Assembly: GCA_946616795.1 (NCBI GenBank)
Contig: CAMOJU010000003.1
Coordinates: forward strand, 758-64,757
Reading direction: 5' to 3'
Source: an uncultured Lachnospiraceae bacterium
Lineage (GTDB): Bacteria; Bacillota; Clostridia; Lachnospirales; Lachnospiraceae
DNA length: 64,000 nt
Shown here: in pieces, positions 8,940 through 55,568 of the stretch
Layout: each line of letters starts with the position of its first letter
Numbering within the stretch: the stretch's first letter is position 1
Made by a program: the position numbers and the translations under genes
Notes under the pieces: generated by a model
Told to the model about the DNA's origin: nothing
Seen by the model: only the letters and a program-made list of their open reading frames with translations
Databases searched by the model: none

Positions 8940-8990
8940 TTTAAGATATCTGATATAAAAGCTTTGGATCAATCAAAGGAGGTAACGGTC

Positions 8991-9212
8991 ATGGAAAATG
9001 AAAAGCTAACGGATGATCAGATGATATCCGACCTGGTTGCCCAGCTCGATGCGGGCTTCGCAAACGGTGTTGGTCATGTAAACGTAGGAACTGAAGAAGG
9101 ACAGGCCGGCAGCAGATCAGTTCAGACTATGGGTTGCACAGACTGTTCACGTACGCCTCTCGCATGCAGCGTACCCACCTTTGAAGATCCGAGACTTGAC
9201 GATTATAAATAA
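8991..9212 (+). CDS. 73-aa PFL-associated peptide: copy of the radical-domain N-terminal segment plus CxxC-x6-C
   Basis: AAGGAGG RBS and ATG at 8991. ISDLVAQLDAGFANGVGHVNV aligns without gaps to [21 protein letters not shown] of the next gene. Confidence 0.75.
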   Translation: MENEKLTDDQMISDLVAQLDAGFANGVGHVNVGTEEGQAGSRSVQTMGCTDCSRTPLACSVPTFEDPRLDDYK

Positions 9213-9233
9213 TTATTACAGGAGGAAAATAAA

Positions 9234-9479
9234 ATGGCAGACGCAAGCAAAGCACAGATCAACAATCTTGTTTCATTATTGGACGGTTATGCTACAAAGG
9301 GTGGACATCACCTTAATGTTAATGTACTTAACAGAGAAACTCTTATCGATGCTCAGAAGCATCCCGAGAACTATCCTCAGCTCACAATCCGTGTATCAGG
9401 ATACGCAGTAAACTTCATTAAGCTTACTCCCGAGCAGCAGGCTGATGTTATCTCTCGTACATTCCACGAGTCTCTCTAA
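9234..9479 (+). CDS. grcA: Autonomous glycyl-radical domain (GrcA/YfiD-like) completing PflB
   Basis: GGHHLNVNV and [21 protein letters not shown]. Confidence 0.92.
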
Positions 9480-9495
9480 TCCTTGTATAAGGCAT

Positions 9496-9550
9496 AAAAA
9501 ATACCCCCTGACGCTAAGCACAAGCGCAATGCGTCAGGGGGTATTTTTTT
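9496..9550 (+). terminator. Intrinsic terminator of the pfl operon
   Basis: AAAAAATACCCCCTGACGC ... GCGTCAGGGGGTATTTTTTT. Confidence 0.9.
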
Positions 9551-9677
9551 ATACCGTTTGGAAAATATAAAATAAAGAAATCAGGGTATTTTCTTGGGGA
9601 AATAATTGCAGAAATATGGTAAAATATTGAAGTATGTATGATAATATGCCGATAGACTATATTGGTATTTTCAAATT

Positions 9678-11840: not shown

Positions 11841-12909
11841 CGAAAAAGAATACAGTAATTACATATCATATATAAGCACGGCGAAAATAATCAGTCTTTT
11901 ATGTGTACTTATATTTCATTGCTGCCTGTTTTTTGCGAACAATCCTTTCTGGCCCACAAGAGCGGAAAAGACATCAACCGTTGCATATTATTTGTGCGAA
12001 TATTTGGATCTGACCATTATTGCCACATTTGTAATGGCATCGGGGTACCTGTTTTCAGAGAAATTAAAGAGAAAAAAGATTACCATACCGGGAGAGATCG
12101 CTGCAAAGACAAAGCAGTATATCGGCAACTATCTGATATACGGCGGGCTCTGGCTGGTTCCTACATATACGCTCTTTGATTTCAGCTGTTTCGGAAGAGA
12201 ACCGGGGACAAGCCTGCTTGACGGATATTATCTGATGGTGATGGGCGTGTTTTCCGATCACTTATGGTTTTTATGGATGCTCTTCTGGATTGCGATATTC
12301 TGGATACTGTGTCATAAACTCCTTAAAGGATGGGGACTTCCGGCAGCAGCCCTCATAGGCATGGGGTATGCGCTTTTTGCCCAGTTTGTACTGGCGGATG
12401 CTCCGTATTTTAAGATAAGCCAGATCGGACAGTATGTGATGGTTTATTTTGCAGGTATATTGTTATCTCATTTTAAGGATGCATATGAGAAGTTAAGCGG
12501 AATCGTTTTGGGTATAATAATATGTGTGACATTCGGACTGATGACGGCGTATATTATTATAAAACCGGAATATTTCATATGGTGCTGGCTGATCAAGATC
12601 GTCGCAGGTTTATTTATTATATCTTTATTCAGACTGATGTCTGTTACAAAATTTTATAAGGATACGGGAAAGACGAGATTCTGGAAGTTTTTAAAAAAGT
12701 ACAGTTTTGAGATTTATCTTTTCAATATGCCCTTTCCGTATCTCTATTTCAGGATAATATATCCTTTTACCGGAAGTATTCCTGCGGTATGCATAATACT
12801 TAATATATTACTTTCGTTTGTTTCAATACTCTGCACAGTGCAGATATGTGTAGTCATAAGGAATTTTATAAAGAAGGTTTTTGCAAGTGGAAAAGAAAAA
12901 ACAAAATGA
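11833..12909 (+). CDS. Acyltransferase-3 family membrane protein
   Basis: Polytopic. FVMASGYLF, HLWFLWMLF, YSFEIYLF. Confidence 0.8.
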   Translation: MDSEKEYSNYISYISTAKIISLLCVLIFHCCLFFANNPFWPTRAEKTSTVAYYLCEYLDLTIIATFVMASGYLFSEKLKRKKITIPGEIAAKTKQYIGNYLIYGGLWLVPTYTLFDFSCFGREPGTSLLDGYYLMVMGVFSDHLWFLWMLFWIAIFWILCHKLLKGWGLPAAALIGMGYALFAQFVLADAPYFKISQIGQYVMVYFAGILLSHFKDAYEKLSGIVLGIIICVTFGLMTAYIIIKPEYFIWCWLIKIVAGLFIISLFRLMSVTKFYKDTGKTRFWKFLKKYSFEIYLFNMPFPYLYFRIIYPFTGSIPAVCIILNILLSFVSILCTVQICVVIRNFIKKVFASGKEKTK

Positions 12910-31774: not shown

Positions 31775-34700
31775 ATGAAAAGAAAGAAATTCGTAAAGAG
31801 AGCGCTGTCTTTTTTTCTTGCGCTATTAATGACATTGTCATATATACCGGAGATAGCTTATGCATATTCGGTCAATGATGGTACAGGATACAGCATCTCG
31901 TCTGATAATGTTCAGTTTAATGATGATGCATCCAATGATATTGACGATGTTCAAATATCGGAAAGTAATAATGATGTTTCCGGCGAGGATGCATCTGAAA
32001 CTATCTCAGATAATAAACCTGATAATGAAGAAGACGACAGTAACATCCAGGACGATCAGGAAGAACAGGATGATAGTGATGTCGATGAAGTGATCGAGGA
32101 TGACAGTATTTCTGAAAACGATATCGATGAAGAAAGTATTTCTGAGAATGTTGCTGAGTTAGAGGAATTAGAGCCGGTTGGGAATGATAGTTACAAGGTA
32201 AGAGTTTCATATCCTAGCGGAATTTATGAATATGATGAGAATGGTAATCCAATCTGGTCAGTGGAAAATATGCTATTTGATTCCATTGACGAGGCTTTTG
32301 GCGCATTTTATGACGGTACATTTATAACAGAAAATAATGATTCACCGATAACAGGAAGATATGAAATAATTCTTAAAAATAATGAACAGATGACAGAGGA
32401 CTTTATTATCCCATCATATGTGCGATTTTTTAATATTACAAGTGAATATGGTACCGAAATTTATTCTCTTGATATGAATGGTCATACAATAAAAACGGGT
32501 GATAAAGATAATAGTGAACTCGATGTTTATATAAATGATGTAAAAATTGTAAGTAATGCAGATGAGTCTGGTTCAATTGAGTTAAATTTTCTGGAGCCGC
32601 CAACAGGAAATGATGTTTTTGGAAAATATTTAAGTGTACTGCCGGAGAATATAATCTGTGAAAATGGAACTGAAATATGCTTGTTTGATAATATTGAAAT
32701 ACGTTCCCCGTATGTGTATTTACGAACGAAAGAAAATAATAAATTAGTATTAAATGATACAATCATTGAAACAGCATCATGTTCTGTTGCTCAGGGAAAA
32801 TGGACAATTAAGGAAATAAACGCTGATTGGTTAAGCGTTAATTGTTTATATGAAGAAAATGGAGATGGGACATATTCATGGACAAAAGCAACACTTGTTG
32901 CGGATAATGTAACATCAGAATGTTCTTTGATGGATTGGTCAACATTTAGGGCTATAAGTATAAAAGGTGAAGCGACAATAAAAAATCTGACATTGAATGA
33001 AGCACGTTTGTCAGTCGAAAAGGCATATGTTTATGGTATTAGTGAGAATGGAACAGGTATTCCATCGGTTTTTTGTCCCTTTGAGCCATCTCTTGATGTT
33101 GATAATATTACACTTACAAAAGGCCCGAGTTCATACGCTTCATATTATGATTCTGAAACTAATTCGGATAATAATTATGCGGTTCAGGTTAACACCGGAT
33201 GTAAATTGTCATGCGATTCATTTGATATGAAAGCGGGTACTTTTTGTAATAGAGGATCCGTAAATTTGGGTCAAGCGTATGTTCAGGATGATTTGATTCT
33301 TCAAAAAGGCTCATCTTTCACGGTTGATGATATTTCTATGGGAACAAGGGGAGAAATATATTTTAATGGTGGATGTACATTAAATATAAATAGTACCGCA
33401 ACTTTATATAATCCATATTTTGAAAATATATATGATAATTATTTAGGTGAGGATCGTGTAATTACTATTAATCGAAAAAATGATACTTCCGTAACCTTTA
33501 ATGGTAATGCTTGTTGGGATAAGGATTTTAAAATGTTGCTTCGAACCGTAGACAACAATGGAAGTCTGATCGGTACACCCGCAGGAACAAAAGTTTTTTC
33601 AGCAAGTTTCTTCTCATTAATAATAGATAATGTAAGTGTGGAACAAACGGAAGAATTTTCCGAATATGATGTTTTAATTGCATATGGTTCCGATGTGGTT
33701 GTCGGAAAGAAATCATTTATTGTTGGAACGGTGGAACCGTTAGGACCCAATGAGGTATACACGCCTGATAGAGAGTTTACTGAGCTCGACAGATTTGTAA
33801 AATGGTCCGATGCTGTAACATACATCGACTCACTTAATAATACAAATGTCGATTATGCCATAATGATCGAGGGTGATACAGATAATTATGAAGCGCTTAC
33901 GTTACCCAAAAATGTTAAGTCTTTTAAAATAATAAGTTCTAATTTTGAAACATTTAAGGAAGAGGATGAAAGACCGTATCTTTCATTTATAGGAAATATC
34001 ACATTAAATACAGATTTAATAGTTGAAGGCGTCATATTAAAACCGATAGCTAAGAACGGAGACGTATACATAGATAATACCGGAATGACAGTATCATTAA
34101 ATGGCAAATGTCTGTATATGTCTGACTCGGAGTTTTACAGTAAGATTGCGTCTGTTACCGGTACAGGTAATTCATCAATTTATCTGATGAGAAATAATTT
34201 GTATGAAGAAAAACCTGCTCTTGAATTGACAGGTAAATTTAGTGTGCCTGACGCTTCAATCAGTGATTACATTGTTAAGGCGTCTGATATACAGATTACT
34301 TCAGTTTTAATGATCACAAACAGTACAATCGAGTCAGACGGAAACATTTCACTTGGAACAGTCTGGGCATTTAACAAAAACGGTGACAAAAACATATTTG
34401 TCACAGGAAACCTGGCAACAAATAAGGTCACAATAAGCAATACTGTAAAAACCGGATATCCGTCAACAGTTGCAGATGTGACTATTCTTGGAGCGGGAGG
34501 TGATGGAACTGATACAGCCCAGCTTAATGTGGATAATGTAATATCATTAAGATCAAAATATATAGAGGATCAGATAGATAAAGGAAACGGAATATCATAT
34601 GGAGATTTCACTGATCACACTCTTGTGACTGGAGCAAAGGTACCGGCATCACTTTTCGTAATCGGATTTGAGTATGATTATTATTTTGATGAGGAAACAT

Positions 34701-40660: not shown

Positions 40661-40704
40661 TAAAGGGGCTGTCGCATTAAAGCTACAGCCCCTCGTTGTT
40701 TTTA
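40661..40704. terminator. Hairpin terminator between P2 and the LuxR gene
   Basis: AGGGGCTGT ... ACAGCCCCT between convergent stop codons. Confidence 0.7.
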
Positions 40705-42077
40705 TGCTCATTAAACATTTTCGATAATTCGGTCCTGTTGGGTACGCCGGTTTTCTTTAAGATATTCTTCATATGAAATTTGACGGTATTTTCAGAGATA
40801 AACAGGGCTTCGGCAATCTTGCTGTTTGAACCGCCCTTGATCACTTCCTGCAAAACCTCTATTTCTCTTGAGGAAAGATTGTTCGCATTTGCAAAGGCCC
40901 TTAACTTCTCCTCTTCATTAACGGTATCGGGGGAAGTATTATTTTTGATCATTATACCGGGCAGATAGACATTCCACCAAAGTAATACCGCGCATATTAC
41001 AGAAGTTAAGAAAAATACGGATATCAGGATAATAAGGATAACGGGATAATCAAGCAGGGGCGTACCGAGCAGAGTTCCGCCGGATTCACCTATTCGTCTG
41101 CAAAGTGTTCCGAATCCGGCGAGAAAAACCGCATCCTGCGCATAATCCGAAAATAATGTAATGCTGTAAACGGTTATAAATCCGGTTATAGCATAATTAA
41201 GTGCCCAAACCACAATATTCCCGATTGAAAAATTGTTAAACAGAAGGGATATGAACGGGCATATGAGTGTGGCGACACATAGCAGCAGACCGCCCTGCCT
41301 TGATCTGTCACATACTATGCCTGCTATTATGAGCCCTACTACAGAAAAAGCCCTGCTGTACTCTATATTGACAGACCCGCTTGTAAAATCGGAGATAGGA
41401 AACATAAATCCAAGACTGCGGGTTGTTTCTATAAATGTTATCGTAAGCATAGACAAAACTATGATTTTGGCAGGGATTTTAGAAGGTTTTTCCTTTACCG
41501 AATTGATCTTATCCCCGGCATCATTAAGCGGGAAATGAATTATAAGCAATGAGATGACAGCAAGTAATCCATACAGGACAAGAGAAAAGTCGCTCTTTAG
41601 GAATTCTCCATCCATTGGAATGGATACCAGCCAGGATGACAGGGTTCCGATTGACCATCCGATTCCGATAGTTATGGCCTTAAATCTTTCGAGGGCTGTC
41701 AGGTACATCAGTGAACATGCGAAAATAACACCGCAGAAGAAATCCATGGATATTCCGAATATAACAGACAGTTGAACGGTCGAAACTGTTATGGCGATTA
41801 TCATAGAAATAAGCTCACAGACAATTGATATCGTAAATGATACTTTTAAATTAAACAGGTTTCTTTTACAACATATTTTAGTGAAAATTGAAAATGCAAC
41901 GATACCGAGTGCCTGTACAAAATAATCTATGATATTAGCAAAAAGATCCACAGTCTCTTCGGGCAATCTGTCCAATAATCTGTATATCCAGCATAAATAT
42001 CCTGTACCTACCCATGAGTAAACTATACCTATGAGAAGGGTAGTTAAAATTGTGTTTCTTATCATTTCTTTTTTCAT
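40683..42077 (-). CDS. Polytopic (~12 TM) membrane sensor fused to a LuxR/NarL-type HTH
   Basis: About 370 hydrophobic aa, then LSSREIEVL...SNSKIAEALFISENTVKFHMKNILKK. Confidence 0.9.
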   Translation of the reverse strand: MKKEMIRNTILTTLLIGIVYSWVGTGYLCWIYRLLDRLPEETVDLFANIIDYFVQALGIVAFSIFTKICCKRNLFNLKVSFTISIVCELISMIIAITVSTVQLSVIFGISMDFFCGVIFACSLMYLTALERFKAITIGIGWSIGTLSSWLVSIPMDGEFLKSDFSLVLYGLLAVISLLIIHFPLNDAGDKINSVKEKPSKIPAKIIVLSMLTITFIETTRSLGFMFPISDFTSGSVNIEYSRAFSVVGLIIAGIVCDRSRQGGLLLCVATLICPFISLLFNNFSIGNIVVWALNYAITGFITVYSITLFSDYAQDAVFLAGFGTLCRRIGESGGTLLGTPLLDYPVILIILISVFFLTSVICAVLLWWNVYLPGIMIKNNTSPDTVNEEEKLRAFANANNLSSREIEVLQEVIKGGSNSKIAEALFISENTVKFHMKNILKKTGVPNRTELSKMFNEHKNNEGL

Positions 42078-42298: not shown

Positions 42299-45200
42299 AT
42301 GAAATTAACCGGATTCAGAAAAAGAAAAAAGAGAAAAAACCTGTATAGGAGCATATCTTTTCTTCTGGTGTTGATAATGGTATTTACCTATATGCCGTTA
42401 ACATCCTTTGCCGGAGATCAACCGGAACAGGTCGAAGATTCCATATCCGAAAATATCACAAATGAGGATACAAATGATACGGATTCGGTCTCCGGGGATG
42501 ATACAGGTGAAGATGTACCGGACGCCCCGGATGATACGACCGGTGAAGATGATATATCAGATAATATATCAGATAATATATCAGATAATATCGTAGGAGA
42601 AGATACTGAAAATGACGATTCTGTTAGTGGTAATACAATCAGTGACAACACGGCAGAAGAAATATTTGAAACACCGGATACAGTAGAACCCGTAGTAGAC
42701 AGCATCTTCACATATACGGAGGATGAAAACGGAGACAGAATATACAGCGGCGGAGACTGTGATTTTGTCGTGACGGTTGATATGCCGGAGGATCTGACGG
42801 AATTTGAGGGGGATGTCAGCTTCTATACAATGAGCGAGGGTCAGGGAGTATTGTATATATATACGACAAGCCCTGTCACGGTATCAATGAAGGATGGTGT
42901 GACAGTAACAGACCAGAGCATCAGGGTAGGATACTCATCCCATGGTATCCATGACGGAGCACATATCACACTTGACAATGTGCATATTGATATGTCAGAG
43001 CAAAATGCATTTATCAATGCAAGTGATTTCAGTTATCAGGATATTACAGATTATATCAATCGTTTTGCTGCCTTTTCGTATGTAGGTTATGATAGTTATA
43101 CTTCGAGCATAACGGTTACACTTGTTGGCGATAATACACTCATTGGACCCAAAGTAGCTGACTCAAGTAGTTACCAGGCAGCATACGGAATATATGCGCA
43201 AGGCGGATATGGTATAGGTATAAAGGGACACGGCAATCTGACTTCTTATGTAGAAAAAGAGGATACAGATGTGTATGACAACTATAGTATATATGTAAAA
43301 TACGGAGCACTTAGGATAGAATGTGACGGTTATTTTGACCTTGGCCCTGTAGAAAACGGAAATGTGTATTCTGAAGATTCAGCCATAATAACCGGAGGTA
43401 CATATGCTCTTGGTAATGCATCATATGATGCAGTATATGGTGTAAATGCCAGCAGAGAGACATGGGGTGACGGCATACAGAGGCTTTATAGAGTCGGATA
43501 TACAAATAACAAAAATAAATATGATAAATATGATGTGTCGGTATATATGCCGGACGATGCAAAGGCGTATCTTTCGAATTATATAGGCAGAGAAACATTA
43601 TATGCCATGAATGAAGATTACGGTCAGGCGTATGATGCCGTATACGCTGCTGCAGTAAGTTTTACCGGTGGTAGTGAGTTTGATGCAGATTATCATATGA
43701 ATTATGGATTCTCAATGGCAGAGACCGGTATGATTCATAATGCTGTAGTAAATGATCATCCTGAATTTATCTGGTGGTGGTCATCTTCATGGGGAGGCGG
43801 TTCAAGAGGTCTGGTTGTAAACCTGAGTACAGAATCTGCGGTTCAGGGATACGAACTTATAAGAAGACAGAAGGCATTTGAGGAGAGCACGGTAAGACTA
43901 TTAAGAGAAGCCGGAATCACAGATACGATGACTGATTATCAAAAGGCCTATGCGCTCTATCAGGTTTTGGTGGCAAATGTTGTTTATAATCTTGATGCAG
44001 GAGACCAGGGAGCGTATGAGGCTATGGTAAATGGAGAAGGCGTATGTGCCGGTTATGCCAAAGCATATGTATATCTCCTTCAGAGAGCAGGAATAAAGGC
44101 TTCATATGTACCCGGTCAGGCAGCTTTACCGGGCCAGTGGTCACAGGGGCATGCATGGGTAATAGCGAAAATAGATGGAGCATATTACCACAGTGACCCT
44201 ACATGGGATGATAATGGTTCTACGTCAAATTTTAAGTATTTTAATGTGCCTTGGAGTGCTCTTTCGTCAGACCACTGGATAGATGATGATTTGGGATATG
44301 AATTCCCTAATGCAATAACAGCCAAGCCGACTCTTCCGTCAAATGTAGTAAAGATAACTGCAACGGCGGGTGCAAATGGTACATCGTATCCTTCAAGCCT
44401 TAGGATTCCATCAGGTTCAAGTGCAAAAGCTACATTTGTAGCTGAGGAAGGATTTGTTATTGATACGGTTAGGGTTAACGGTGTGCCGGCTACTCCTGTC
44501 AGCGAGGGCGGTGGAGTTTATACGCTTGAATTAAGCAATATCACAACTGCGACAACAGTAAGTGCCACATTTACCGAAGCAGATCCAACTGATGTCATAC
44601 CAAAGCAGGTTGGTGATTTCATAGTTTATTTCAACGATGGAACGGAGATAAACGCGGAAGGTACAAGTGATTGTTTCGCAAGCGGAAATAATTTTTATAT
44701 TTTAACTGATAAACCCATAACAATTGAAATGGGCAAAGATGAAAACGGTGATACCATAGCTTCAAGCAGTATGAAAATTACACCATCCGTAGCTGAGTCC
44801 TATATCACACTAAAGAATGTAACTATTGTATTTGATGTGGAGAATTACGATTCAATAATTGATGCAAAAGGAAAAACTGTTCATCTGACTCTTATTGGAG
44901 ATAATTATCTGATAGATTCCGATCCGAACTTTACCGGTACAAGCGGAATATCAACTGGAAGACCTGATTCGAACTATACGTATTTGAAGGAAGGTGAATT
45001 AACAATAACCGGTACGGGAACACTTACCATGCAGGGACTGCAAAGTGGCCTTGAATTTAGCGATCTGACAATGACGGGAGGATCTCTCAAATTTGTAAAT
45101 TGTACCCAGCCATACGGATACTGGGGCGCAGGAAAGGTAGAGATTAAAGGCGGAAAATTTGCTGATGTTGTGGATGCGTCAAAAGGCATAGTCTTCAAAT

Positions 45201-47719
45201 ATATGGATTACACCAATGGGACAGGACAGCAGAACGTATATGTAGCTTCCGGATATAAGATTGTCACATCCGGTGACGCCTCATATCCATACCAGGTTGT
45301 ATCATCAGGTTCATCATCCGGTGCAGTAAATGTTTCATCGATTACTCTGAATAAGACATCCTGCACACTTTATGTTGGTATGGTAGATGGTGATGTTGTG
45401 GGTGATACGATATCGCTTGTTGCAACAGTAAAACCTGCAAATGCAGATAACCCTGATCTTGTATGGTCATCGTCAAATGAGTCGGTTGCAACAGTGGATA
45501 TCTATGGCAATGTTACGGCTATTGCCCCCGGAACAGCTGTTATAAAGGCTTCAAGTACTGACGGAAGTAATAAGTCGGCTACATGTACCGTCACCGTAAA
45601 GGCTCAGCAGGCTACGGGGATACATATAATGTGTCAGGGATCCATTGTAAGTTCGGTGACTATTGAAACAGGAGGTTCAAGGGTCCTTGATGTATTATTT
45701 GATCCGACAGATACGTATTATAAAAATGTTACATGGACGACATCCAACAGTAATGTTGCCGAAGTTGATGATAATGGAACACTTCATACATATGCAGACG
45801 GTACAGCAACCATTACCGCTACAACAACAGACGGTTCCAATAAGAAAGCAACGCTTACGGTAATTGCGAGAACTCCGGCGACGGATATAACAATTACCGG
45901 TCCAGGAGTAGAAGATGATAAGGTCACTCTTTCTAATGGAAATTCATTACAGTTAACCGCTTCTGTTATGCCGGATAATGCAACGGATAAATCTGTGACA
46001 TGGTCAAGTTCAAATACAGCTGTTGCATATGTATCATCTACCGGACTTGTAAAGGCCAAGGGAACCGGAACGGCTGTAATTACAGCAACCGCTAATGGAG
46101 GAACCGGAGTAAGCGCTTCAATCACTGTTACGGTATTCACCCAGGGCTTTACTATTGACGCTGATGGAAACACGACATATGTAAAAAGTGACCATACTCT
46201 TGCAACAGGCTGGACAACTGTCGGCAGACGTACTTACTATTTTGATCCTGAAACATCTTATATGCTAACCGGATGGGATGTTTTAGATGGTAATAAGTAT
46301 TATTTCAATCCGGAGACGGGAGCCCTTCAGACAGGCTGGCATACCATAGATGATGAATTATATTACTTTAATCCTTATGCAAATGGTGATGTGCATGCAG
46401 GAGCAATGGTTACCGGTGAGTTTACATACAGAGGAAAGACATATTTTCTGGATGAAACGACGGGGGCAACAGTCATTGGATGGAGAACAGTTGGAGATAA
46501 CAGGTATTACTATGATGCGACCGGCGCTATGGTGAGTGGTCTGGTATCTCTGGGAGATGGGGATTACTTCTTTGCAGCCAACGGTACTCTTGTAAAGAAT
46601 GATTTTGTCGAAATTGACGAGGCGGTATACTACTTTGACAATGACGGTAAGAAGGTACTTGGAGACGATGATTATAGAGAAATAAACGGAGAGCGTTTCT
46701 ATTTTGATCCCGAAGGAAAGGTAAAATCCGGATGGGTCGATATAGATCCTTCTGCTGATGAAAGACTGGTATATTGTCTTGAGGCGGGTGATGATCATCA
46801 TAGTTTTGGTCAGGTCGCAGCAGGTCTGGTAGATATTAATGGTAATACATATCTCTTTAGTGGTATTGATGATAATTATTACTATGGTGAAATAAAGACA
46901 GGATTACAGCAGTACTACGATGACTGGTACATGTTTGATTCTGACGGCATAGCTCTCTCCGGCTGGCAGAGTGATGATGGTGATATATACTATTTCGATT
47001 CAAATACGAAAGCTGCTGCTCGTGGTATGACCGTAATCAATAAAAAGACATACTACTTTAATGCTGATGGTAGCGAAAAGCCAACGCTCGTTGTAAATGA
47101 TACTGTAAAAATTGAGGGCGAAGACTACATAGCAGATAAAAACGGAGTCCTGAAGAGTGTCAATAATACTTCGACATGGGTTGATGACGGAGATAAAAAG
47201 ATATTCCTCAGCAAAAACGGAACAGCAGTGTCAGGATGGGTCGCAGACGGTGGTCTGATGTACTACTGTGATCCCGCAACAGGCGAGGCAGTGACAGGCC
47301 TTAAAAAGATTGGTTTAAAGGTTTATCTCTTTGATGATGACGGTGCGCTGGCAACACCGGATCGCGTAACGGCAATCATAAAAGGTGAAGAATATGACTT
47401 ATCAGGTGAGATAACAATAGAGGTTGACGGAGAAAACAGGCAGTACAAGATACGCGGCGATGGTTCTTTGGTGACAGGCTGGGTAAGAGACAACGGATGG
47501 AAGTATATTCCCTCTCCTGTTGCTGCAGTGGGATGTCAGGCATGTTATCCTTCCTATACAGATGCCCTTGGGGCAGCTACTCTCAGCAGTGACATGGCTT
47601 CAGCCAATACTCTTGATATGGCCAACATCGCACCGGTATCATACATGGGATCTGAAAATATAGCTATGATTATTCCAATGCATCTGAAGGCTCATTCACT
47701 GAAAACAATGATGTTCTGA
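42299..47719 (+). CDS. P3: secreted transglutaminase-like-domain protein with Ig-like domains and cell-wall-binding repeats (1806 aa)
   Basis: Triad GVCAGYA / GHAW / SDPTWDD (~43910-44260), two beta-helix modules, three Big_2 (~45330-46140), YYF..TGW repeats (~46150-47500) and a C-terminal tail. Confidence 0.88.
42552..42591 (+). repeat. Perfect 12-bp tandem repeat encoding ISDN x3
   Basis: (ATATATCAGATA)3 followed by ATAT. Confidence 0.9.
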
Positions 47720-47766
47720 CACAAGCAATTATGTAAAGGAGCTGTCGCAGGTCCAAAATTAAAACG

Positions 47767-47806
47767 AAAACCATATCCTGTTATGCAAGACGGGGTATGG
47801 TTTTTT
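47767..47806 (+). terminator. Intrinsic terminator after P3
   Basis: AAAACCATATCCTGT ... ACGGGGTATGGTTTTTT. Confidence 0.75.
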
Positions 47807-47844
47807 ATTGCATACATTTACTTTAGGAAGAATCATGATACTTA

Positions 47845-47873
47845 TTGAATATATAACGTGAACGCGTTATAAT
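47845..47873 (+). promoter_or_regulatory. Sigma-A promoter with embedded palindromic operator
   Basis: TTGAAT-N17-TATAAT, with TATAACG-N6-CGTTATA at 47852-47871 covering the spacer and the -10. Confidence 0.75.
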
Positions 47874-47893
47874 TTAATTACGAGGTTGGAGTA

Positions 47894-48343
47894 ATGAATG
47901 AGTATTTTAAATCAAAAGTGAGAGAGTGTGGGAAAAGTCTGTATAGAATAAGTCATGAAACCGGCATACCGTATACTGTTTTAAATGAGATATATAACGA
48001 TAAGAAAAATATTAACAATATCACATCCGAAACAGTGTACAAGTTATGCCTTTACTTTGATTGCGATATGAAATCGCTCCTTAATCCTTTTCCTCTTCTG
48101 AAAAACAGCAGAGGGATTTACAGAAAAGTATCTTATCAGTGGGTTGCCACGAATAATGGTGAAGAGATGGAATTACAGATATTGGCAGATAATGAGCCGG
48201 AGACAATAATTACTTTGAAGCAAGCTATACCTGATGCATACAAAGAGTACAATAGTCTGGTTGCTGAAGTAGCTATTGATGATTATTTAAAGAGGAAGAA
48301 GGACGAAGAGGTATTAAATGGGGCAATATTTTTTGATGCATAA
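47894..48343 (+). CDS. Cro/C1-type HTH protein (candidate antitoxin)
   Basis: KSLYRISHETGIPYTVLNEIY HTH. Overlaps the downstream kinase gene. Confidence 0.75.
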   Translation: MNEYFKSKVRECGKSLYRISHETGIPYTVLNEIYNDKKNINNITSETVYKLCLYFDCDMKSLLNPFPLLKNSRGIYRKVSYQWVATNNGEEMELQILADNEPETIITLKQAIPDAYKEYNSLVAEVAIDDYLKRKKDEEVLNGAIFFDA

Positions 48344-49484
48344 AAATGATATATGCGGTGCAATGGTTATTGATGATGATAGCAGTTATATCCGATCATA
48401 TAAGGATTCTGGGAAAGGAAAATCTCCTTTTCTGGGAAATTGTGACGAGAGAAAAATAATAAAATGGTGGGAGGGTCGAGCTGTACCGGCTTCGAGAAAA
48501 ATGGTACAGGATATCCTGAAGCACAACGGTTATATCAATACGGAAAAGTATCTCGTGAAAAATCTGGCACTTTCGATGACGGACGCTTATTGGATAAGGC
48601 CTATCAGTATGAAACTGGTATATGAGGACATATCCTTTTCCAATCTCTCACCATACAATGACGGTAAAGTTCCATATCATAACGAGACATCATATGATCC
48701 AAATGCTTCTCTTGGAGGTCAGATGGATAAATATTGGGATTTGAGTACGGAAAAGCCGTCACTGGTAAAAGAAAGTTATAAATATTTTGGTCAGCAGGCA
48801 ATAAATGAAGTCTTTGCCACAATGATTCATCAGAGACAACAGACAAAGATACCATTCGTATCATATACAGCTGAAAAGACGGACGACAATGGAGTTATTT
48901 GTCGTTGTGAAGCATTTACGAGTGAAGATTTGGAATTTGTCCCGGCATATGAAGTAATAGAGAGTTCAAAAAATGAGAGTGAAAGCTCACCATACGATAA
49001 TTATATTAGGATTTGTGCAAATGCCGGAATTAAAAAAGTTGTAATGCAGGAATTCATGGATTATCAGACTATGACGGATTTTATTATAAGTAATACTGAT
49101 GAACATCTCCTAAACTTTGGAATTCTGCGTAACCCGGATACATTTGAGTATATTGGACCGGCCCCTATTTTTGATTCTGGTAACAGTATGTTTTTCTCTG
49201 AAAAAGCAGAGGTATTATCACGTGTGTCATTATTGAAAAGGCAGATTACCGGATTCTATCAGACAGAAGAAAAAATGTTAAAAAATGTAAAAAACAAGGA
49301 TATTGTAGATTTATCTTTGTTACCGTCTGAAAAAGAGTGCAAAGAATTATATAAAGCCTATGGTATACCTAAAGAAAAAGCCGAGGCGATAGCAAAAAAT
49401 TATATAACTAAAGTTAAAATGGCTCATGATTTTCAAAAAGGAATGAAAATCTCACTGTATCATGAGAAAAACAAAAAATCGTAG
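48318..49484 (+). CDS. HipA/CtkA-like Ser/Thr kinase (candidate toxin)
   Basis: ASLGGQMDKYW loop, NTDEHLLNFG catalytic loop, APIFDSGNS. Confidence 0.8.
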   Translation: MGQYFLMHKNDICGAMVIDDDSSYIRSYKDSGKGKSPFLGNCDERKIIKWWEGRAVPASRKMVQDILKHNGYINTEKYLVKNLALSMTDAYWIRPISMKLVYEDISFSNLSPYNDGKVPYHNETSYDPNASLGGQMDKYWDLSTEKPSLVKESYKYFGQQAINEVFATMIHQRQQTKIPFVSYTAEKTDDNGVICRCEAFTSEDLEFVPAYEVIESSKNESESSPYDNYIRICANAGIKKVVMQEFMDYQTMTDFIISNTDEHLLNFGILRNPDTFEYIGPAPIFDSGNSMFFSEKAEVLSRVSLLKRQITGFYQTEEKMLKNVKNKDIVDLSLLPSEKECKELYKAYGIPKEKAEAIAKNYITKVKMAHDFQKGMKISLYHEKNKKS

Positions 49485-49535
49485 CAAAATGAATAAGAAG
49501 CCGGGCCATACCACTTTTTTGGTGCGGGTGTTTTC

Positions 49536-49569
49536 AGGGTTGACACAGAGATGTGTTAACCCTTTATTT
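49536..49569 (+). terminator. Intrinsic terminator after the kinase gene
   Basis: AGGGTTGACACA-GAGA-TGTGTTAACCCT-TTATTT. Confidence 0.7.
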
Positions 49570-49670
49570 ATATGTCGGAAAATAGTAAAATATAGGTAGC
49601 ACGCTTTATTGATTTAAGCGATGACAGCATAGTGATTTTTAATGTATTTTCGTCGAATGGAGGCGGATTT

Positions 49671-52600
49671 ATGAACAGAACTAAAAGTAGAAAAGCGGGA
49701 AAAAGAATTTTTTCGATAATGCTGGCAGTTCTCCTGCTCTTTAATTATATTCCGGAGACAGTTTATGCCGGAACGGTTAATGATGGAGAGGACGTAAGCG
49801 TATCCGGAAATGTAGCGAATTATGACAGCGTATCCAGTGATGACGCAGACGAAACAGTGTCGGATAATACCTACGACGAATCGGGAGATGCTGCAGGCGA
49901 TGAATCAGATAATATCCCGGATGAACCATCGTCAGTTTCAGATAATGATTCGGAGTATTCTGAAAACAATGACGCAGAAGATACTGTATCTGACAATAGT
50001 GTGTCGGATAATGATGTGGATGATTACAGTCAGGTCCCTGATTTTCCGACCGGAGGTAATAATGAGATAGAGGATACCATAGATATTGAGAATGTAAATG
50101 TCAAACCGACAAATTATGTTCCAAATCTTAGGGGAAGCGTCCTTCCTGTTTCATATACTACACCGAATCTTCCAGATCTTCGTAATCAGTATCCGTATGG
50201 AACCTGTTGGGCTCATTCTGCAATGGCACTCGCTGAAATTAGTTTAATAAAGCAGGAATTTGTGGATCCAAGTGTCGACTTATCTGAGTTACATTTAGCT
50301 TACTTTTCTTATAATACGGTAATTGATCCATTGGGTGGACTTGATGGTGATTCGAACGCATGTTTAAACGATACCTTTATGGATAGAGGAGGAAATATCT
50401 CTCTTGCTGAAAATGTGTTGTTTTCATGGACTGGAGCTGCAAGTGAAGAAACAGCCCCTTATTCAAATGCGTCATCAGCACTTGTGAATGGATTAAGCAC
50501 CGGGATTGCATATACCGATTTAGCACATATGACGGCCTGCTATGAAACTACTATTTCAACATCTCAGGCTGATATAAATGCAGTAAAGCAAATGGTGTAT
50601 GATTATGGTGCTGTAGGAATCAGTTATTATGCTGTAAATTCAATGTCTGCTGTTACATCCCAAAATATCTACAGTACAGCAAATAATTGCTATTACAACT
50701 CAGGAGCATCCGGACTTACAGCAAATCACGCTGTTACGATTGTTGGATGGGATGACAGTTTTGCAAAAGAAAATTTTGCTACTCAGCCGGCAGGAGATGG
50801 TGCATGGCTTATCAGAAATAGCTGGACAACAGGAACTGTCTATAGTTATTCAGGATATTTTTGGATGTCATATTATGAACCTTCTATTGATGATGATGCT
50901 GTATCTTATGTGTTTGAACTAGAAAATAACTATGACAATAATTATCAATACGATGGAGGTATGCAGTCAAATTCTGTTCCGGGAACAAAGTTTGCAAATG
51001 TCTTCACAGCACATGCAGAAGGTGGAGATTTAGGAGAAACTATAGAAGCAATTGCTTTTTATACACCGACATCAAATGTTACTTATACTGTAAATATATA
51101 TGGCGATGTAACGGGGACTAATCCGGAGAGTGGTACTTTGATTGCTACACAGACCGGAACTACTACTTACGCAGGATATTATACAGTTAAATTAAAAAAA
51201 CCATGCACAGTTGAAAAAAACACTAAATTTTCTGTCGTAATCTCTCTGTCTAAAGAAGGTTATACAGCTGAAATGGGATATGAACAGCCTGTTTCAACAA
51301 GCGACTGGTATCAGGTAACGACTCATGCGGATGCCGGAGAGAGTTATATATATAATGGTTCGTGGAGAGATTTTACAAATTATTATTCTAATCTTACAAA
51401 TTCTAATCTTAGAATAAAGGCTTTTACCAATAATGTTCAATCAGGTGAAATTGTTGCTCCTGAAAGCATTGAAATAGACGATGAAATATTATCTAACGGA
51501 ATCACTCTTGGTGTAACACAAAGTTATACAGTTAGTGCAAAAGTTAATCCAAGTAATACAACAAACAGGAAACTGATATGGACAAGTTCTGATACAAGTA
51601 TAGCGACTGTGGCTAATGGAGTTGTCACCGGAGTTAGTTCAGGAACGGCAGTTATTACAGTAAAATGCGATGCTGATAATACGATATATAAAACATTTTC
51701 TGTAACGGTAGATGCTGACACACTGATTTCGATTTCTGTCAGCGCAGACTCGCAAAAATTCAAGAGATACAGTGAATATACATTTTCGGCTTCGGCAAAT
51801 CCTTCAACAGCGTCGCTTGAAGGTTTGACGTGGTCGTCATCCAATACAAACGTAGCAACAATAGATTCTACAGGAAAAGTGAAGACGGTAGGTGTTGGTA
51901 AAACAACAATTACTGCAACATGTGGTAATATTACCGGCTCCAAGGAGATAACGGTATATCCTGATGCCCCCAACTTTACTTATTATACGGACGATGATAA
52001 TACAATCAAGCTTTATTGGGAAGCCGTAGATGGAGCGACAGGTTATGAGATTAATTATAACCAAAAGGAAATTAGTATAGTTTCTGAAGAGGGAAAAACA
52101 AATTACGAATATGAGATTAACGATTATTCAGGGATTGAATATAGCGAAAATAATTGCGTTGCGATAACTGTTTATGCGTTGGTTCCCAGTGTTGACAGCA
52201 CAGGAACGTATGGTTATGGATTAACCCAATATGTATATTATGGACCAACATATACAATTATTTATGATGTCGGAAACGGAACGAATAATGCAAATAATCC
52301 CAGCACATACAAATATGGACGCCCGGGTATATCATTTCAAAATCCTATAGCTCCTAAAGGATATACTTTTAAAAGATGGTATTACATAAAAAATAATACA
52401 ACATATACAATTACAGGGATTAGTTCTACATATTATTTTGATAGTTCCACAAAGAGTTTAAAAGTGTATGCGGAGTATAAGCCGATTACTTATACAATAG
52501 CTTTTAACAATAATGGCGGCACGGGTACGATTAATTCCGTTTCATGTACTTATGATACTGCAAAGACTCTTCCAGCATGTACATTCACAAAGAACGGATA

Positions 52601-55568
52601 TACATTTACAGGCTGGAATACCAAGGCTGACGGAACAGGCACATCGTATGCTCCCGGAGCCAGCGTAAGTAATCTTACATCGACCCAGGGGGCGACGGTA
52701 ACACTTTATGCTCAGTGGTCAAAAGGTTCATACACGATTGTTTTCAATGCCAATAATGGAACAGGAACCATGAACAATCAGGTATGTGCATTTGACGAAG
52801 AAATAACACTGTCGGCAAATACATATACGAGAACAGGATATACGTTTGCCGGATGGAATACACAATCAAATGGCAATGGAACATCATATGCTGACAAGGC
52901 AAGTGTAAAGAACCTTGCTGCAAGTGGATCAATAACGTTATATGCACAGTGGACACCGATTACGTATACAATTGCATTTGACGGAAATGGTGGAACAGGT
53001 ACGATGAGTTCCGTTTCATGTACTTACGATAGTGCTAAAACTCTTCCGACATGTACATTTACAAAGACAGGATATTCATTTTATGGTTGGAATACAAAAG
53101 CAGATGGAACAGGTATATCATATGCAGATAAGGCAAGTATAACTAATCTGACATCAACCCAGGGAGCAACGGTTACGCTTTATGCAAAATGGAAGGCCAA
53201 TACATACACGGTAGCATTTAACAGTAATGGTGGAACCGGCACGATGTCATCAATGACAGGTTGTACCTATGACAATGCTTATTATTTAACTGATAATAAA
53301 TTTAAGCTTACAGGTTATATGTTTGCAGGCTGGAATACGAAAGCCGATGGAACGGGTACATCATACGCAGACTGTGCAACTGTGGCAAATCTGGCAACAA
53401 GCGGAACGGTTACATTGTATGCCCAATGGACACCGATTACATATACAATTGCATTTGACGGAAATGGTGGAACAGGTACATCAGCATCGATGACACAGTG
53501 TTCATATGATAATTCGATTGTTCTGACGGCTAACGGATTTACGAAGGAAGGATACACCTTTACAGGATGGAATACATCTTCTGACGGAAAAGGTGTGGCC
53601 TATGCTGACGGGGCATCAGTAAAGAATATGTCATCTGTACAGGGTGCGACGATCACCTTGTATGCACAGTGGAAGGCAAACAAATATACAGTTGTCTTTG
53701 ATGCAAATAGCGGAACAGGAACAATGAATTCCCTTGAATGTACTTATGGTACATCATCAATTCTTCCTCAGTGTTTGTTTACGAAACAAGGATATACTTT
53801 TGCCGGATGGAATACGGAGCCGGATGGTACAGGTATTAACTACGGAGATAAGGCTGATGTGCTGAATCTTGCCACAGAAGGTAATATCACACTTTATGCT
53901 ATGTGGGAAGGCATGCCGGTGACAGTTACGCTCTGTGCTAATGGCGGACAGTTTGATGACGGAAATACTGATAAACAGATAACAGTTTATTATAACGGAA
54001 AATATACATCTCTTGTAACTCCCGAGAGAGCCGGATTCACTTTCGGTGGATGGTATGTTTCATTGGCAGGTGGAAATGAGATTACAACGAATACTCCTGT
54101 GACAAGCTGCGCAAGTCATAAACTGTACGCAAAGTGGATTGCGAATGATGGCTGGCATGTAAGTGGAAGAAGCAGTTATTATACAAGCGGTGGTAATCGT
54201 GTATATGGTCAGTACGATTTTAGTGAATCTGAAAGCTATTACTTCAACCCTTCAACCGGTCTCCTTATGACCGGTCTGATCAAGACTGCTGAAGGAACAT
54301 ATTACGGTGACTCATCCCAGGGCGGAAAACTCATTAAGGGTGAGAAGGTAATCGGATCAAATACGTATTTGTTTGCTGATGGTTACAGAATGGTGACAGG
54401 CTGGTATGATAATTGTTACTACGATGAGATAACCGGCGCCAGACAGACAGGATTTATTGAGATCGAAGGCAATACTTATTACCTGAACCCCGAAAAGGTA
54501 ACCGGCTGGCAGGATATAGATGGTGACAGATACTATTTTGACACAAACGGTATCATGGTCACAGGTCATCAGGCTGATATAAATGGTAAAGAGTATTACT
54601 TCACTGAAGACGGTCAGCTCATGACAGGCTGGATAGATACTGATGCCGGTGAGATATATGCTGTAGAAACGGATGATGTCCTGACGGGAGAAACTATCGG
54701 CGAGATTGTTAAAGACAGAGATCGTCTGATAGATGGAACGATGTATAAATTCAATGCTGACGGTTCTGTTTATGCACCGGAAGAACCCGGAGTAACGGAA
54801 ATAGGCGGTAAATATTATTTCTTTAATGCTGACGGAGTAGCAGTAAAGGGTTGGTATACATTTGATGATGGAAAGACATATTACTTTGGAAGCGACGGAG
54901 CAGCTCTTTTAGGTAATCAGGTAATAAATCTGAAAGCATATCAGTTTGATGCTGATGGCGTCCTCACAAATGAATACAAGCCGGGATCATCGACATTCTT
55001 TAACGATGAAGATGGCGATAAATATTACATAAACAAATATGGCAAGGCCGTAACCGGCTGGATATATTCAGGCAACAGCAAGTATTATATGAACACTGAG
55101 ACAGGTGCTGCTGTGAAGTATGCCTACAAGGTAGGACTCAAGGTTTACTACTTTGACGCAGAGTGCAGGCTGGTATCATCCGGTAATACTGTGCAGATCG
55201 GAAACACTACATATTCAATAAAGAATGACAGCAGCCTGAAGACCGGATGGGTCAGAACAGGTGGTATATGGCAGAGTATCCCTGAACCTGTAATGGGTAT
55301 ACCGGGAACAGTGACACAGCTTCCGCAGAGCACAGGATATATACCTGAACCAATGACATCAACCCAGGCACTTGCAGCTTGTCAGTCGGTATTCAACACA
55401 GAGAACTTTGAATCGGTATATGACGTCACATCAGATACAGCCGGTACAGACAGTGTGACAGATATTATTATGACAGTAGACTTTGAGCAGTTGCCTGTTT
55501 CTACAATGTTGGCGACACATGCAGATTACCATTGTTTATCGTCAAAAAACATGATGGCAAATTATTAA
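49671..55568 (+). CDS. P4: secreted papain-like (C1A) cysteine protease with lectin-like, Ig, InlB-B and cell-wall-binding repeats
   Basis: RNQYPYGTCW, NHAVTIVGW, WLIRNSW. GGAGG RBS and ATG at 49671 (track gives 49632). About eight YT(I/V)xFxxNGG repeats, YYF..GW repeats and a C-terminal tail. Confidence 0.9.
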   Translation: MNRTKSRKAGKRIFSIMLAVLLLFNYIPETVYAGTVNDGEDVSVSGNVANYDSVSSDDADETVSDNTYDESGDAAGDESDNIPDEPSSVSDNDSEYSENNDAEDTVSDNSVSDNDVDDYSQVPDFPTGGNNEIEDTIDIENVNVKPTNYVPNLRGSVLPVSYTTPNLPDLRNQYPYGTCWAHSAMALAEISLIKQEFVDPSVDLSELHLAYFSYNTVIDPLGGLDGDSNACLNDTFMDRGGNISLAENVLFSWTGAASEETAPYSNASSALVNGLSTGIAYTDLAHMTACYETTISTSQADINAVKQMVYDYGAVGISYYAVNSMSAVTSQNIYSTANNCYYNSGASGLTANHAVTIVGWDDSFAKENFATQPAGDGAWLIRNSWTTGTVYSYSGYFWMSYYEPSIDDDAVSYVFELENNYDNNYQYDGGMQSNSVPGTKFANVFTAHAEGGDLGETIEAIAFYTPTSNVTYTVNIYGDVTGTNPESGTLIATQTGTTTYAGYYTVKLKKPCTVEKNTKFSVVISLSKEGYTAEMGYEQPVSTSDWYQVTTHADAGESYIYNGSWRDFTNYYSNLTNSNLRIKAFTNNVQSGEIVAPESIEIDDEILSNGITLGVTQSYTVSAKVNPSNTTNRKLIWTSSDTSIATVANGVVTGVSSGTAVITVKCDADNTIYKTFSVTVDADTLISISVSADSQKFKRYSEYTFSASANPSTASLEGLTWSSSNTNVATIDSTGKVKTVGVGKTTITATCGNITGSKEITVYPDAPNFTYYTDDDNTIKLYWEAVDGATGYEINYNQKEISIVSEEGKTNYEYEINDYSGIEYSENNCVAITVYALVPSVDSTGTYGYGLTQYVYYGPTYTIIYDVGNGTNNANNPSTYKYGRPGISFQNPIAPKGYTFKRWYYIKNNTTYTITGISSTYYFDSSTKSLKVYAEYKPITYTIAFNNNGGTGTINSVSCTYDTAKTLPACTFTKNGYTFTGWNTKADGTGTSYAPGASVSNLTSTQGATVTLYAQWSKGSYTIVFNANNGTGTMNNQVCAFDEEITLSANTYTRTGYTFAGWNTQSNGNGTSYADKASVKNLAASGSITLYAQWTPITYTIAFDGNGGTGTMSSVSCTYDSAKTLPTCTFTKTGYSFYGWNTKADGTGISYADKASITNLTSTQGATVTLYAKWKANTYTVAFNSNGGTGTMSSMTGCTYDNAYYLTDNKFKLTGYMFAGWNTKADGTGTSYADCATVANLATSGTVTLYAQWTPITYTIAFDGNGGTGTSASMTQCSYDNSIVLTANGFTKEGYTFTGWNTSSDGKGVAYADGASVKNMSSVQGATITLYAQWKANKYTVVFDANSGTGTMNSLECTYGTSSILPQCLFTKQGYTFAGWNTEPDGTGINYGDKADVLNLATEGNITLYAMWEGMPVTVTLCANGGQFDDGNTDKQITVYYNGKYTSLVTPERAGFTFGGWYVSLAGGNEITTNTPVTSCASHKLYAKWIANDGWHVSGRSSYYTSGGNRVYGQYDFSESESYYFNPSTGLLMTGLIKTAEGTYYGDSSQGGKLIKGEKVIGSNTYLFADGYRMVTGWYDNCYYDEITGARQTGFIEIEGNTYYLNPEKVTGWQDIDGDRYYFDTNGIMVTGHQADINGKEYYFTEDGQLMTGWIDTDAGEIYAVETDDVLTGETIGEIVKDRDRLIDGTMYKFNADGSVYAPEEPGVTEIGGKYYFFNADGVAVKGWYTFDDGKTYYFGSDGAALLGNQVINLKAYQFDADGVLTNEYKPGSSTFFNDEDGDKYYINKYGKAVTGWIYSGNSKYYMNTETGAAVKYAYKVGLKVYYFDAECRLVSSGNTVQIGNTTYSIKNDSSLKTGWVRTGGIWQSIPEPVMGIPGTVTQLPQSTGYIPEPMTSTQALAACQSVFNTENFESVYDVTSDTAGTDSVTDIIMTVDFEQLPVSTMLATHADYHCLSSKNMMANY
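52965..53479 (+). repeat. 38-bp exact direct repeat within the P4 InlB-B repeats (period 477 bp)
   Basis: TATACAATTGCATTTGACGGAAATGGTGGAACAGGTAC at 52965-53002 and 53442-53479. Confidence 0.85.

Follow-up and report, generated by a model that had tools for sequence, protein, structure and literature searches.

Proteins of the choline-binding family often carry their repeat module at or near the C-terminus, Pce and CbpL being known exceptions, and the locus described here raises the question of what a longer peptide behind such a module is and what it may contribute. The window analyzed in this study is a stretch of 64,000 nucleotides of contig CAMOJU010000003.1, which derives from a metagenome-assembled genome (MAG) of an uncultured rumen or gut Lachnospiraceae bacterium and encodes, among others, the large secreted proteins P3 and P4. 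In both proteins, the polypeptide continues past the cell-wall-binding repeats into a tail, of 70 and 96 residues, respectively. A preliminary description of the window regarded these tails as a new sorting or docking peptide with a series of shared, ordered motifs. The comparisons presented below indicate that the tails are real, translated coding sequence under selection, and they tentatively suggest that the tail acts as an accessory interaction peptide close to the cell wall.

Position and Coding Character of the Tails

The proteins, their repeats and their tails are located in the window as follows.

42299 to 47719, plus strand: P3, 1806 residues, secreted, an uninterrupted open reading frame (open reading frame list, translation, Pfam)
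46157 to 47506, plus strand: cell-wall-binding (choline-binding-type) repeats of P3, approximately residues 1287-1736 (Pfam and profile matches)
47507 to 47716, plus strand: tail of P3, 70 residues (IPSPV...KTMMF), followed by the stop codon at 47717-47719; codon phase checked on the raw sequence
49632 to 55568, plus strand: P4, about 1965-1978 residues, secreted, an uninterrupted open reading frame (open reading frame list, translation, Pfam)
54171 to 55277, plus strand: cell-wall-binding repeats of P4, approximately residues 1514-1882 (Pfam and profile matches)
55278 to 55565, plus strand: tail of P4, 96 residues (IPEPV...NMMANY), followed by the stop codon at 55566-55568; codon phase checked on the raw sequence

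Both tails lie exactly where the preliminary description had placed them, in continuous open reading frames whose codon phase was verified. The other five frames are full of stops over both tails, and no hidden degenerate repeats were found in any frame. The tail is kept in frame in relatives known from independent assemblies, namely P0003 and P0004 for P3 and P0006 and P0007 for P4, and the in-frame conservation of the P3 tail extends to P0009, L109 and L110. In one of the relatives, an indel of nine codons leaves the frame of the P3-type tail intact, and no premature stop occurs in any of the nine tail sequences that were compared (six of the P3 type, from the window, L109, P0003, P0004, P0009 and L110, and three of the P4 type, from the window, P0006 and P0007). 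Furthermore, the P3 tail is covered without gaps by two contigs from public sequencing runs, a DNA contig of 539 nucleotides and a contig of 486 nucleotides from a sheep-gut metatranscriptome. Each of these contains 33 substitutions, many of them at third codon positions and in three-base spacing (47503, 47506, 47509, 47512, 47515 and onward). The metatranscriptome contig represents a related allele and spans 47194-47676, which takes in the final repeats and the greater part of the P3 tail; at least one related strain thus transcribes the tail, and the gene is expressed in vivo. A frameshift, which the preliminary description had considered as a possible origin of the tails, or an assembly artefact is ruled out by the closed frames, by the gapless independent assemblies and run contigs, and by the in-frame indel of nine codons.

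The two types differ in how strongly their tails are constrained. By the Nei-Gojobori method, the ratio of nonsynonymous to synonymous substitution rates (dN/dS) between the P3 tail and that of P0004, the P3 orthologue of another strain, is 0.22, which is a rough value because dS is saturated in this comparison (1.5-2.1), and the adjoining repeats yield 0.12; these ratios indicate purifying selection on the P3-type tail. Between the P4 tail and that of P0007, dN/dS reaches 0.56 against 0.21 in the repeats, and the replacements are concentrated in the last 25 or so residues.

Conserved Motifs and Probable Common Ancestry

The segments of the tails on which the comparison of the nine sequences turns are the following.

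47507 to 47521, plus strand: IPSPV, the end of the last repeat and Pro-rich exit hinge, the only motif clearly common to all tails (alignments)
47531 to 47539, plus strand: Gly-Cys-Gln, invariant in six of six P3-type tails
47612 to 47647, plus strand: a block of 12 residues in the P3 tail, almost invariant in the P3-type tails
47681 to 47695, plus strand: HLKAH, the HxxxH of P3; HxxxH is found in all nine tails, and a helix is modelled here at very low confidence
55380 to 55385, plus strand: Cys-Gln of the P4 tail (in LAACQS), kept in three of three P4-type tails
55518 to 55532, plus strand: HADYH, the HxxxH of P4, the sole stretch over which hhalign joins the two tail families (E=0.068)

From the motif series that had been attributed to both tails, IPxPV, Cys-Gln (within each type) and HxxxH withstand the comparison, whereas SDxA, PVSxM and KxMM do not persist in orthologues, so that roughly half of the series fails in the aligned sequences. 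SDxA is replaced by NDQV or NDLT, PVSTM by APIAL in P0007, and KxMM by KALV, RRDA or KSKI. All nine tails possess IPxPV, an HxxxH (in the variants HLKAH, HVKTH, HINGH, HADYH and HADSH) and a terminal Phe or Tyr, and the residues before this terminus vary (KTMMF, KALVF, RRDAF, MMANY, ILNY). Cys-Gln is located at tail position 10 in the P3 type and at position 35 in the P4 type, and across the six P3-type tails the blocks GCQ, LDMAxIAP and HxxxH are invariant. The Ile of IPxPV closes the final repeat hairpin, which in P3 ends in W-K-Y-I instead of W-Y-Y-F, so that the strongest common motif belongs in part to the repeat itself. In the P4 tail, the IPEP hinge is duplicated.

The similarity of the two tails beyond this hinge is borderline in pairwise comparison. 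BLASTP reports no alignment of the P3 tail with the P4 tail at E<=100, a Smith-Waterman comparison gives p=0.58, and hhalign joins the two families over the HxxxHxL piece alone. Global and ordered alignments of the P3 and P4 tails reach z=3.0-3.6 with IPxPV and z=1.5-2.2 without it (p=0.03-0.09, and 0.007-0.2 for other pairs); in the global alignment, the removal of IPxPV reduces z from 3.6 to 1.5. The longest common subsequence has 35 residues, compared with 29.5+/-1.7 in shuffles. The preliminary description had made its motif series answerable to shuffled controls, and with these z-scores the outcome lies on the borderline.

A further indication of ancestry comes from the repeats in front of the tails. 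P3 and P4 contain repeats of the families PF19127 and PF01473, tandem beta-hairpins of approximately 20 residues (GW...YYF) which exceed the Pfam threshold in both proteins (Choline_bind_3: 143.9 bits in P3; 89.3 bits, 1e-25, in P4; cut-off 27). AlphaFold2 models the repeats with an overall predicted local distance difference test (pLDDT) of about 70-88, the P3 hairpins being at about 80 as far as the residue preceding the tail and the P4 hairpins at about 70-79. The repeats of P3 and P4 retain 36% identity, and their last 110 or so residues align in register up to IPxPV. This register suggests that the whole C-terminal module, including the tail, probably descends from one ancestor and that the tails are fast-diverged homologues; if they are homologous, divergence between the two types has been far more rapid in the tail than in the repeats.

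Distribution and Exchange of the Anchoring Cassette

The tail was sought far beyond the window. A HMMER search with a profile of four tails against 1.84 billion representative proteins returned three clusters at 50% identity, which correspond to the P3 type, the P4 type and P0009 and all belong to this lineage. In each of the three clusters the match is the extreme C-terminus behind the repeat cassette, which answers in the affirmative a check proposed in the preliminary description, whether homologues are always C-terminal to wall-binding repeats. The same description had counted a lack of homologous tails elsewhere against its reading, and outside this lineage the search found none. Of the other 44 species in the genus, none gives a match to the profile, not even at E<=1, the same holds for 300 genera of the family, and a pattern search of the species genomes of GTDB yielded no tail. 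One metagenome provided two further alleles of the same lineage (L109 and L110), and the window's own genome, searched with either tail at E<=10, contains no further match. As judged by these searches, the tail is restricted to one rumen Lachnospiraceae lineage.

Repeats without such a tail occur in the same genome and genus. Just one other repeat-bearing protein is encoded in the genome (contig C45 of G000, 8700-12128), a membrane-anchored protein of about 1140 residues with Ig-like domains, two internal choline-binding repeats and a C-terminal GH25 lysozyme. Congeners encode short repeat proteins, with open frames of about 530-670 residues, and the one congener GH25 lysozyme that was examined ends approximately 20 residues past the last repeat.

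Within the lineage, the cassette of repeats and tail is found on at least three secreted passengers, P3, P4 and P0009. The last of these, a protein of 1594 residues from another strain, combines the same repeat cassette and a P3-type tail with a different passenger in which no domain, and in particular no peptidase domain, is recognised. Identity among the cassettes of P3, P0003 and P0009 forms a mosaic of 42-100% per 40 columns. Three tailed genes lie side by side in one island in a related strain, where the order is P2-like, P0009, MatE, P0003, helix-turn-helix (HTH), HipA-like and P4-like (P2 being a further large secreted protein of the window). Evidently, leaders as well as anchoring cassettes pass from gene to gene within the island, and the tail moves with the repeats.

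Peptide Properties and Possible Functions

The reading that we tentatively prefer, and which falls a little short of being probable, is that the tails, which are genuine translated extensions within a lineage-specific, recombining wall-anchoring cassette, serve close to the wall as accessory interaction peptides which fold upon binding. In this mechanism, export would proceed via the N-terminal Sec-type leader, which both P3 and P4 possess, and retention at the wall via the repeats. The tail leaves the solenoid exactly at the end of the last beta-hairpin, through the Pro-rich hinge (IPxPV; duplicated in P4), and beyond it a moderately hydrophobic peptide of 50-70 residues, with few basic residues and without a confidently predicted fold, presents the conserved Cys-Gln, a T-x-A-L-x-A segment, a possibly helical HxxxH and the aromatic last residue. 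The tail most likely makes a contact, which could consist in self-association, capping of the solenoid, capture of a partner or capture of a metal. The charge-hydropathy plot places every tail on the compact side, unlike a classic disordered spacer, and this behaviour is more in keeping with a peptide that binds than with an inert linker. AlphaFold2 assigns a pLDDT of 23-33 to the P3 tail and of 27-34 to the P4 tail and draws low-confidence helices over T-x-A-L-x-A and HxxxH.

The catalogued families offer no ready assignment. None of the Pfam families, including dockerins and other docking domains, matches the four tails at E<=10, no NCBIfam family matches the two tails of the window, each taken with its last repeat, at E<=1, and there is no tail match among the sequences of the PDB. 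Two candidate tail domains, PF26918 (Ig_Eae) and PF26182 (Ig_NUP210_5th), were discarded, as they represent Ig-like domains elsewhere in homologues. A thioester reading of the CQ motif (Cys...Gln) was ruled out on context.

A new covalent or enzymatic sorting signal, comparable to LPXTG or exosortase signals, could be suspected from the fact that the tails form the C-terminus of several surface proteins in one locus and from the small-residue-Cys string that contains the conserved tail Cys and is followed by Gln (47525-47539, AVGC or VVGC in the P3 type; 55371-55385, LAAC in P4), which superficially resembles a lipobox. We consider this explanation hardly credible. The preliminary description correctly stated that the tails are not transmembrane (TM) segments, lack a basic end and are not sortase signals: the maximal Kyte-Doolittle mean over 19 residues is 0.9-1.5, the net charge is -2 to -10, and neither tail contains LPXTG, a TM segment or a basic end. 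Near the tailed genes, no gene for a sortase, an exosortase, a rhombosortase-like protein, a processing protease or a binding protein was found. The strings VVGC, AVGC and LAAC lie approximately 1750 (P3) and 1900 (P4) residues from the N-terminus, where Lgt cannot use them, and are not preceded by an n-region or h-region, and the Cys string is probably not a lipidation site. Furthermore, the tail belongs to one lineage only, always accompanies one particular repeat cassette and follows a non-covalent wall anchor that is already present. Since the leader explains export and the repeats explain retention, a sorting signal is not needed.

Alternatively, the tail could be a C-terminal propeptide or processing tag, removed after export by a C-terminal processing protease of the PDZ type or by the cysteine-peptidase domains of P3 and P4 themselves. 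The aromatic last residue of all tails (F or Y), the Pro-rich hinge exactly at the repeat boundary and the papain-fold domains in P3 and P4 would agree with such a role, yet the neighbourhood contains no gene for a processing protease, P0009 carries the tail although no peptidase domain can be recognised in it, and the residues before the terminus are not conserved, all of which leaves removal of the tail a remote prospect.

The single Cys and the HxxxH pair that all nine tails share suggest a small Cys/His site, with additional Met or Asp, for metal capture or metal-bridged association. The i/i+4 spacing of the His residues fits one helix face, where AlphaFold draws its low-confidence helix, Met accounts for 10% of the P3 tail of the window, and the purifying selection on the P3-type tail (dN/dS 0.22) and its invariant blocks leave room for a metal role as well as for docking. 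However, three ligands are minimal, and the Cys is separated from the first His by 49 residues in P3 and by 46 in P4 with no predicted fold joining them. The enrichment in Met is not conserved (seven in the P3 tail of the window, two to three in P0003 and P0009), the tails match no metal-binding families, and the motif is not the HExxH of zincins; the zincin reading was rejected because no variant has Glu at position 2. On balance, a metal site appears quite improbable.

It must also be considered that the tail could be a functionless appendage, either a decayed domain or an old stop-loss extension, which hitch-hikes with a useful repeat cassette. This explanation would account for the very narrow distribution, the lack of a confidently predicted fold, the dN/dS of 0.56 and the freely changing end of the P4 tail, the in-frame indel and the duplicated IPEP hinge, and for the divergence of the P3 and P4 tails almost beyond recognition while the repeats remain at 36% identity. 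What speaks against it is the dN/dS of the P3 type, which is similar to that of the repeats, the persistence of invariant blocks across six P3-type tails despite saturated dS, the retention of the tail behind all three passengers, none of the nine sequences being cut short by a stop, and the preservation of HxxxH and an aromatic C-terminus in both types. We therefore regard an absence of function as unlikely, though less so than a sorting, processing or metal-binding role.

An interaction peptide that folds on binding remains the preferred explanation, and several points weigh against it. Its partner, its ligand or its self-association would be putative. The P4-type tail is relaxed and its last 25 or so residues are free to change, and the P3 type tolerates an indel of nine residues, both of which agree with a weak or absent function of parts of the tail. 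The dN/dS of the P3 type is a rough figure, as noted above, the AlphaFold input comprised seven to eight closely related sequences, with which a low pLDDT is compatible with a fold, and the pneumococcal tails that are compared below are positional analogues only, without sequence homology.

Genomic Island and Large Secreted Proteins

The tailed proteins are part of an island (19374-55568, or 19.4-55.6 kb) that encodes four very large secreted proteins, P1, P2, P3 and P4, and has a G+C content of 0.34-0.43, compared with about 0.39-0.47 in the flanks. P1 (4052 residues) and P2 (2959 residues) each have a Sec-type leader, and a wall-binding domain was looked for in both and not found. Within the genus, P1 and P2 are restricted to this species and absent from the other 44. 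The low G+C content and the lack of P1, P2 and the tails in the 44 congeneric species fit a lineage-specific, possibly acquired island.

A further proposal of the preliminary description concerns P1 and P2, namely that the tail is a docking handle which holds these anchorless proteins, or another protein of the island, on the wall-bound P3 and P4. Such a handle would let P3, P4 and P0009 capture P1 and P2, possibly via a bridge of Cys/His and metal, and would result in a small, lineage-specific surface assembly that is independent of sortase. The two large proteins do combine a Sec-type leader with the lack of a wall-binding domain, they lie alongside tailed proteins in the island, both in the window and in two further strains, and they are missing together with the tails from the other 44 congeneric species. 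The hydrophobic, low-charge composition of the tails and their conserved short blocks are, in addition, as expected for peptides folding on binding. However, the co-occurrence derives from effectively one lineage and has almost no weight, no complementary module was found, and the tails match nothing else in the genome; the P3-type and P4-type tails are, in addition, so unlike each other that a single receptor for both is doubtful. Docking of P1 and P2 on the tails, including the assembly that would follow from it, is accordingly judged quite unlikely.

The passengers themselves are multidomain proteins. P3 consists of a Sec-type leader, an acidic Ser/Asp linker, a transglutaminase-like core, three Big_2 domains, the choline-binding-type repeats and the tail (Pfam: Transglut_core 3e-13, Big_2 3e-39, Choline_bind_3 1e-42). 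P4 contains a papain-family C1 peptidase, a lectin-like domain, Big_2 domains, eight Flg_new repeats, the choline-binding-type repeats and the tail; its Peptidase_C1 domain (approximately 50100-50950) is found with E=9e-13 when the region is scanned alone and is not listed by the Pfam scan of the whole protein. The longest open reading frame of P4 begins at a GTG (49632), and the likely start is the ATG at 49671 (MNRTKSRK), 13 codons further on, which is also where the database copy of the window's own P4 begins (P0005, 1965 residues).

At 31775-32200 of the window, the signal peptide and acidic Ser/Asp/Asn linker of P2 (MKRKKFVKRALSFFLALLMTLSYIPEIAYA...) are nearly identical over about 130 residues to the N-termini of P0004 and P0009, both from other strains. 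Apparently, leader cassettes have been swapped among the island genes in the same manner as the C-terminal repeat cassettes.

The intervals between the large genes differ in part among strains. A LuxR-type membrane regulator is encoded between P2 and P3 of the window (40683-42077, minus strand), and in a related strain the tailed protein P0009 and a MatE transporter are encoded instead, between the P2-like gene and the P3 orthologue (L007, 8757-14941). Between P3 and P4 (47894-49484), the window encodes an HTH_26 protein of 149 residues and a protein of 388 residues with a HipA-like C-terminal domain, with an overlap of 26 nucleotides, and the same pair is located at the same place in a related strain (L008, 15580-17170). 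This may be a toxin-antitoxin-like pair in the island. A terminator scan called none after P3; by eye, a hairpin (AACCATA...TATGGTT) followed by a T-run is visible after the P3 stop at 47769-47808, with a loop beyond the limit of the scan.

The neighbours of the tailed genes comprise the LuxR-type membrane regulator, the HTH/HipA-like pair, a PflA-type activase, shikimate genes and mannan-degradation genes. The radical-SAM gene 17 nucleotides after P4 was considered as a modifier of the tail and rejected, as it encodes the PflA-type activase (Radical_SAM and Fer4_12), pflB is found in the same window, and P3 and P0009 are without such a neighbour. PflB of the window is 99% identical to PflB of MAG RUG13912, and the next relatives are rumen and gut MAGs.

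Implications and Comparison with Known Tails

If the binding function is true, the tail would provide a second interaction surface on a classical anchor of the choline-binding type and would explain the surface retention of very large anchorless proteins in a rumen Lachnospiraceae bacterium. For now, the tail stands as an orphan module known from a single uncultured lineage, the finding opens no general question, and its value is one of annotation, the tail being real, not a frameshift and not a sorting signal.

Among known proteins, the closest likeness is with Pce (CbpE), the pneumococcal phosphorylcholine esterase, in which a functionally unassigned tail of 85 residues follows the choline-binding module and whose crystal structure was determined without this tail (PMC4929436). 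Pce is likewise a secreted enzyme with a tail directly behind the choline-binding module, and the length class is the same (85 versus 70-96 residues). It differs in its organism and in the passengers involved, and its sequence has no detectable relationship with the tails described here, since the profile search of 1.84 billion representatives returned only this lineage. The tails of P3 and P4 thus share with the pneumococcal tails the position after a choline-binding module and not homology.

Extra residues past the last choline-binding repeat are also present in PspA, Cpl-1, CbpM, CbpF and LytA, which are precedents for a role in capping or association. In LytA, the terminal hairpin mediates dimerisation. 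In Cpl-1, a tail of 16 residues and the last repeats together form a sheet, which touches the catalytic module, and CbpM carries a tail after its choline-binding module (PMC4929436); the tail of PspA comprises 17 residues (PMC8847780). These short pneumococcal tails are four to six times shorter than those of P3 and P4. Furthermore, in the structurally characterised cases, Cpl-1 and LytA, the extra residues belong to the repeat fold, whereas the tails described here are set off by the Pro-rich hinge and are not modelled as packing on the solenoid. LPXTG/sortase signals and other C-terminal sorting signals are likewise located at the C-terminus of surface proteins, but differ from these tails, which have no LPXTG, TM helix, basic cluster or cognate enzyme gene nearby. 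A general new sorting signal is therefore unlikely, and the tail of P3 and P4 is better viewed as a further case of the tails found behind choline-binding modules.

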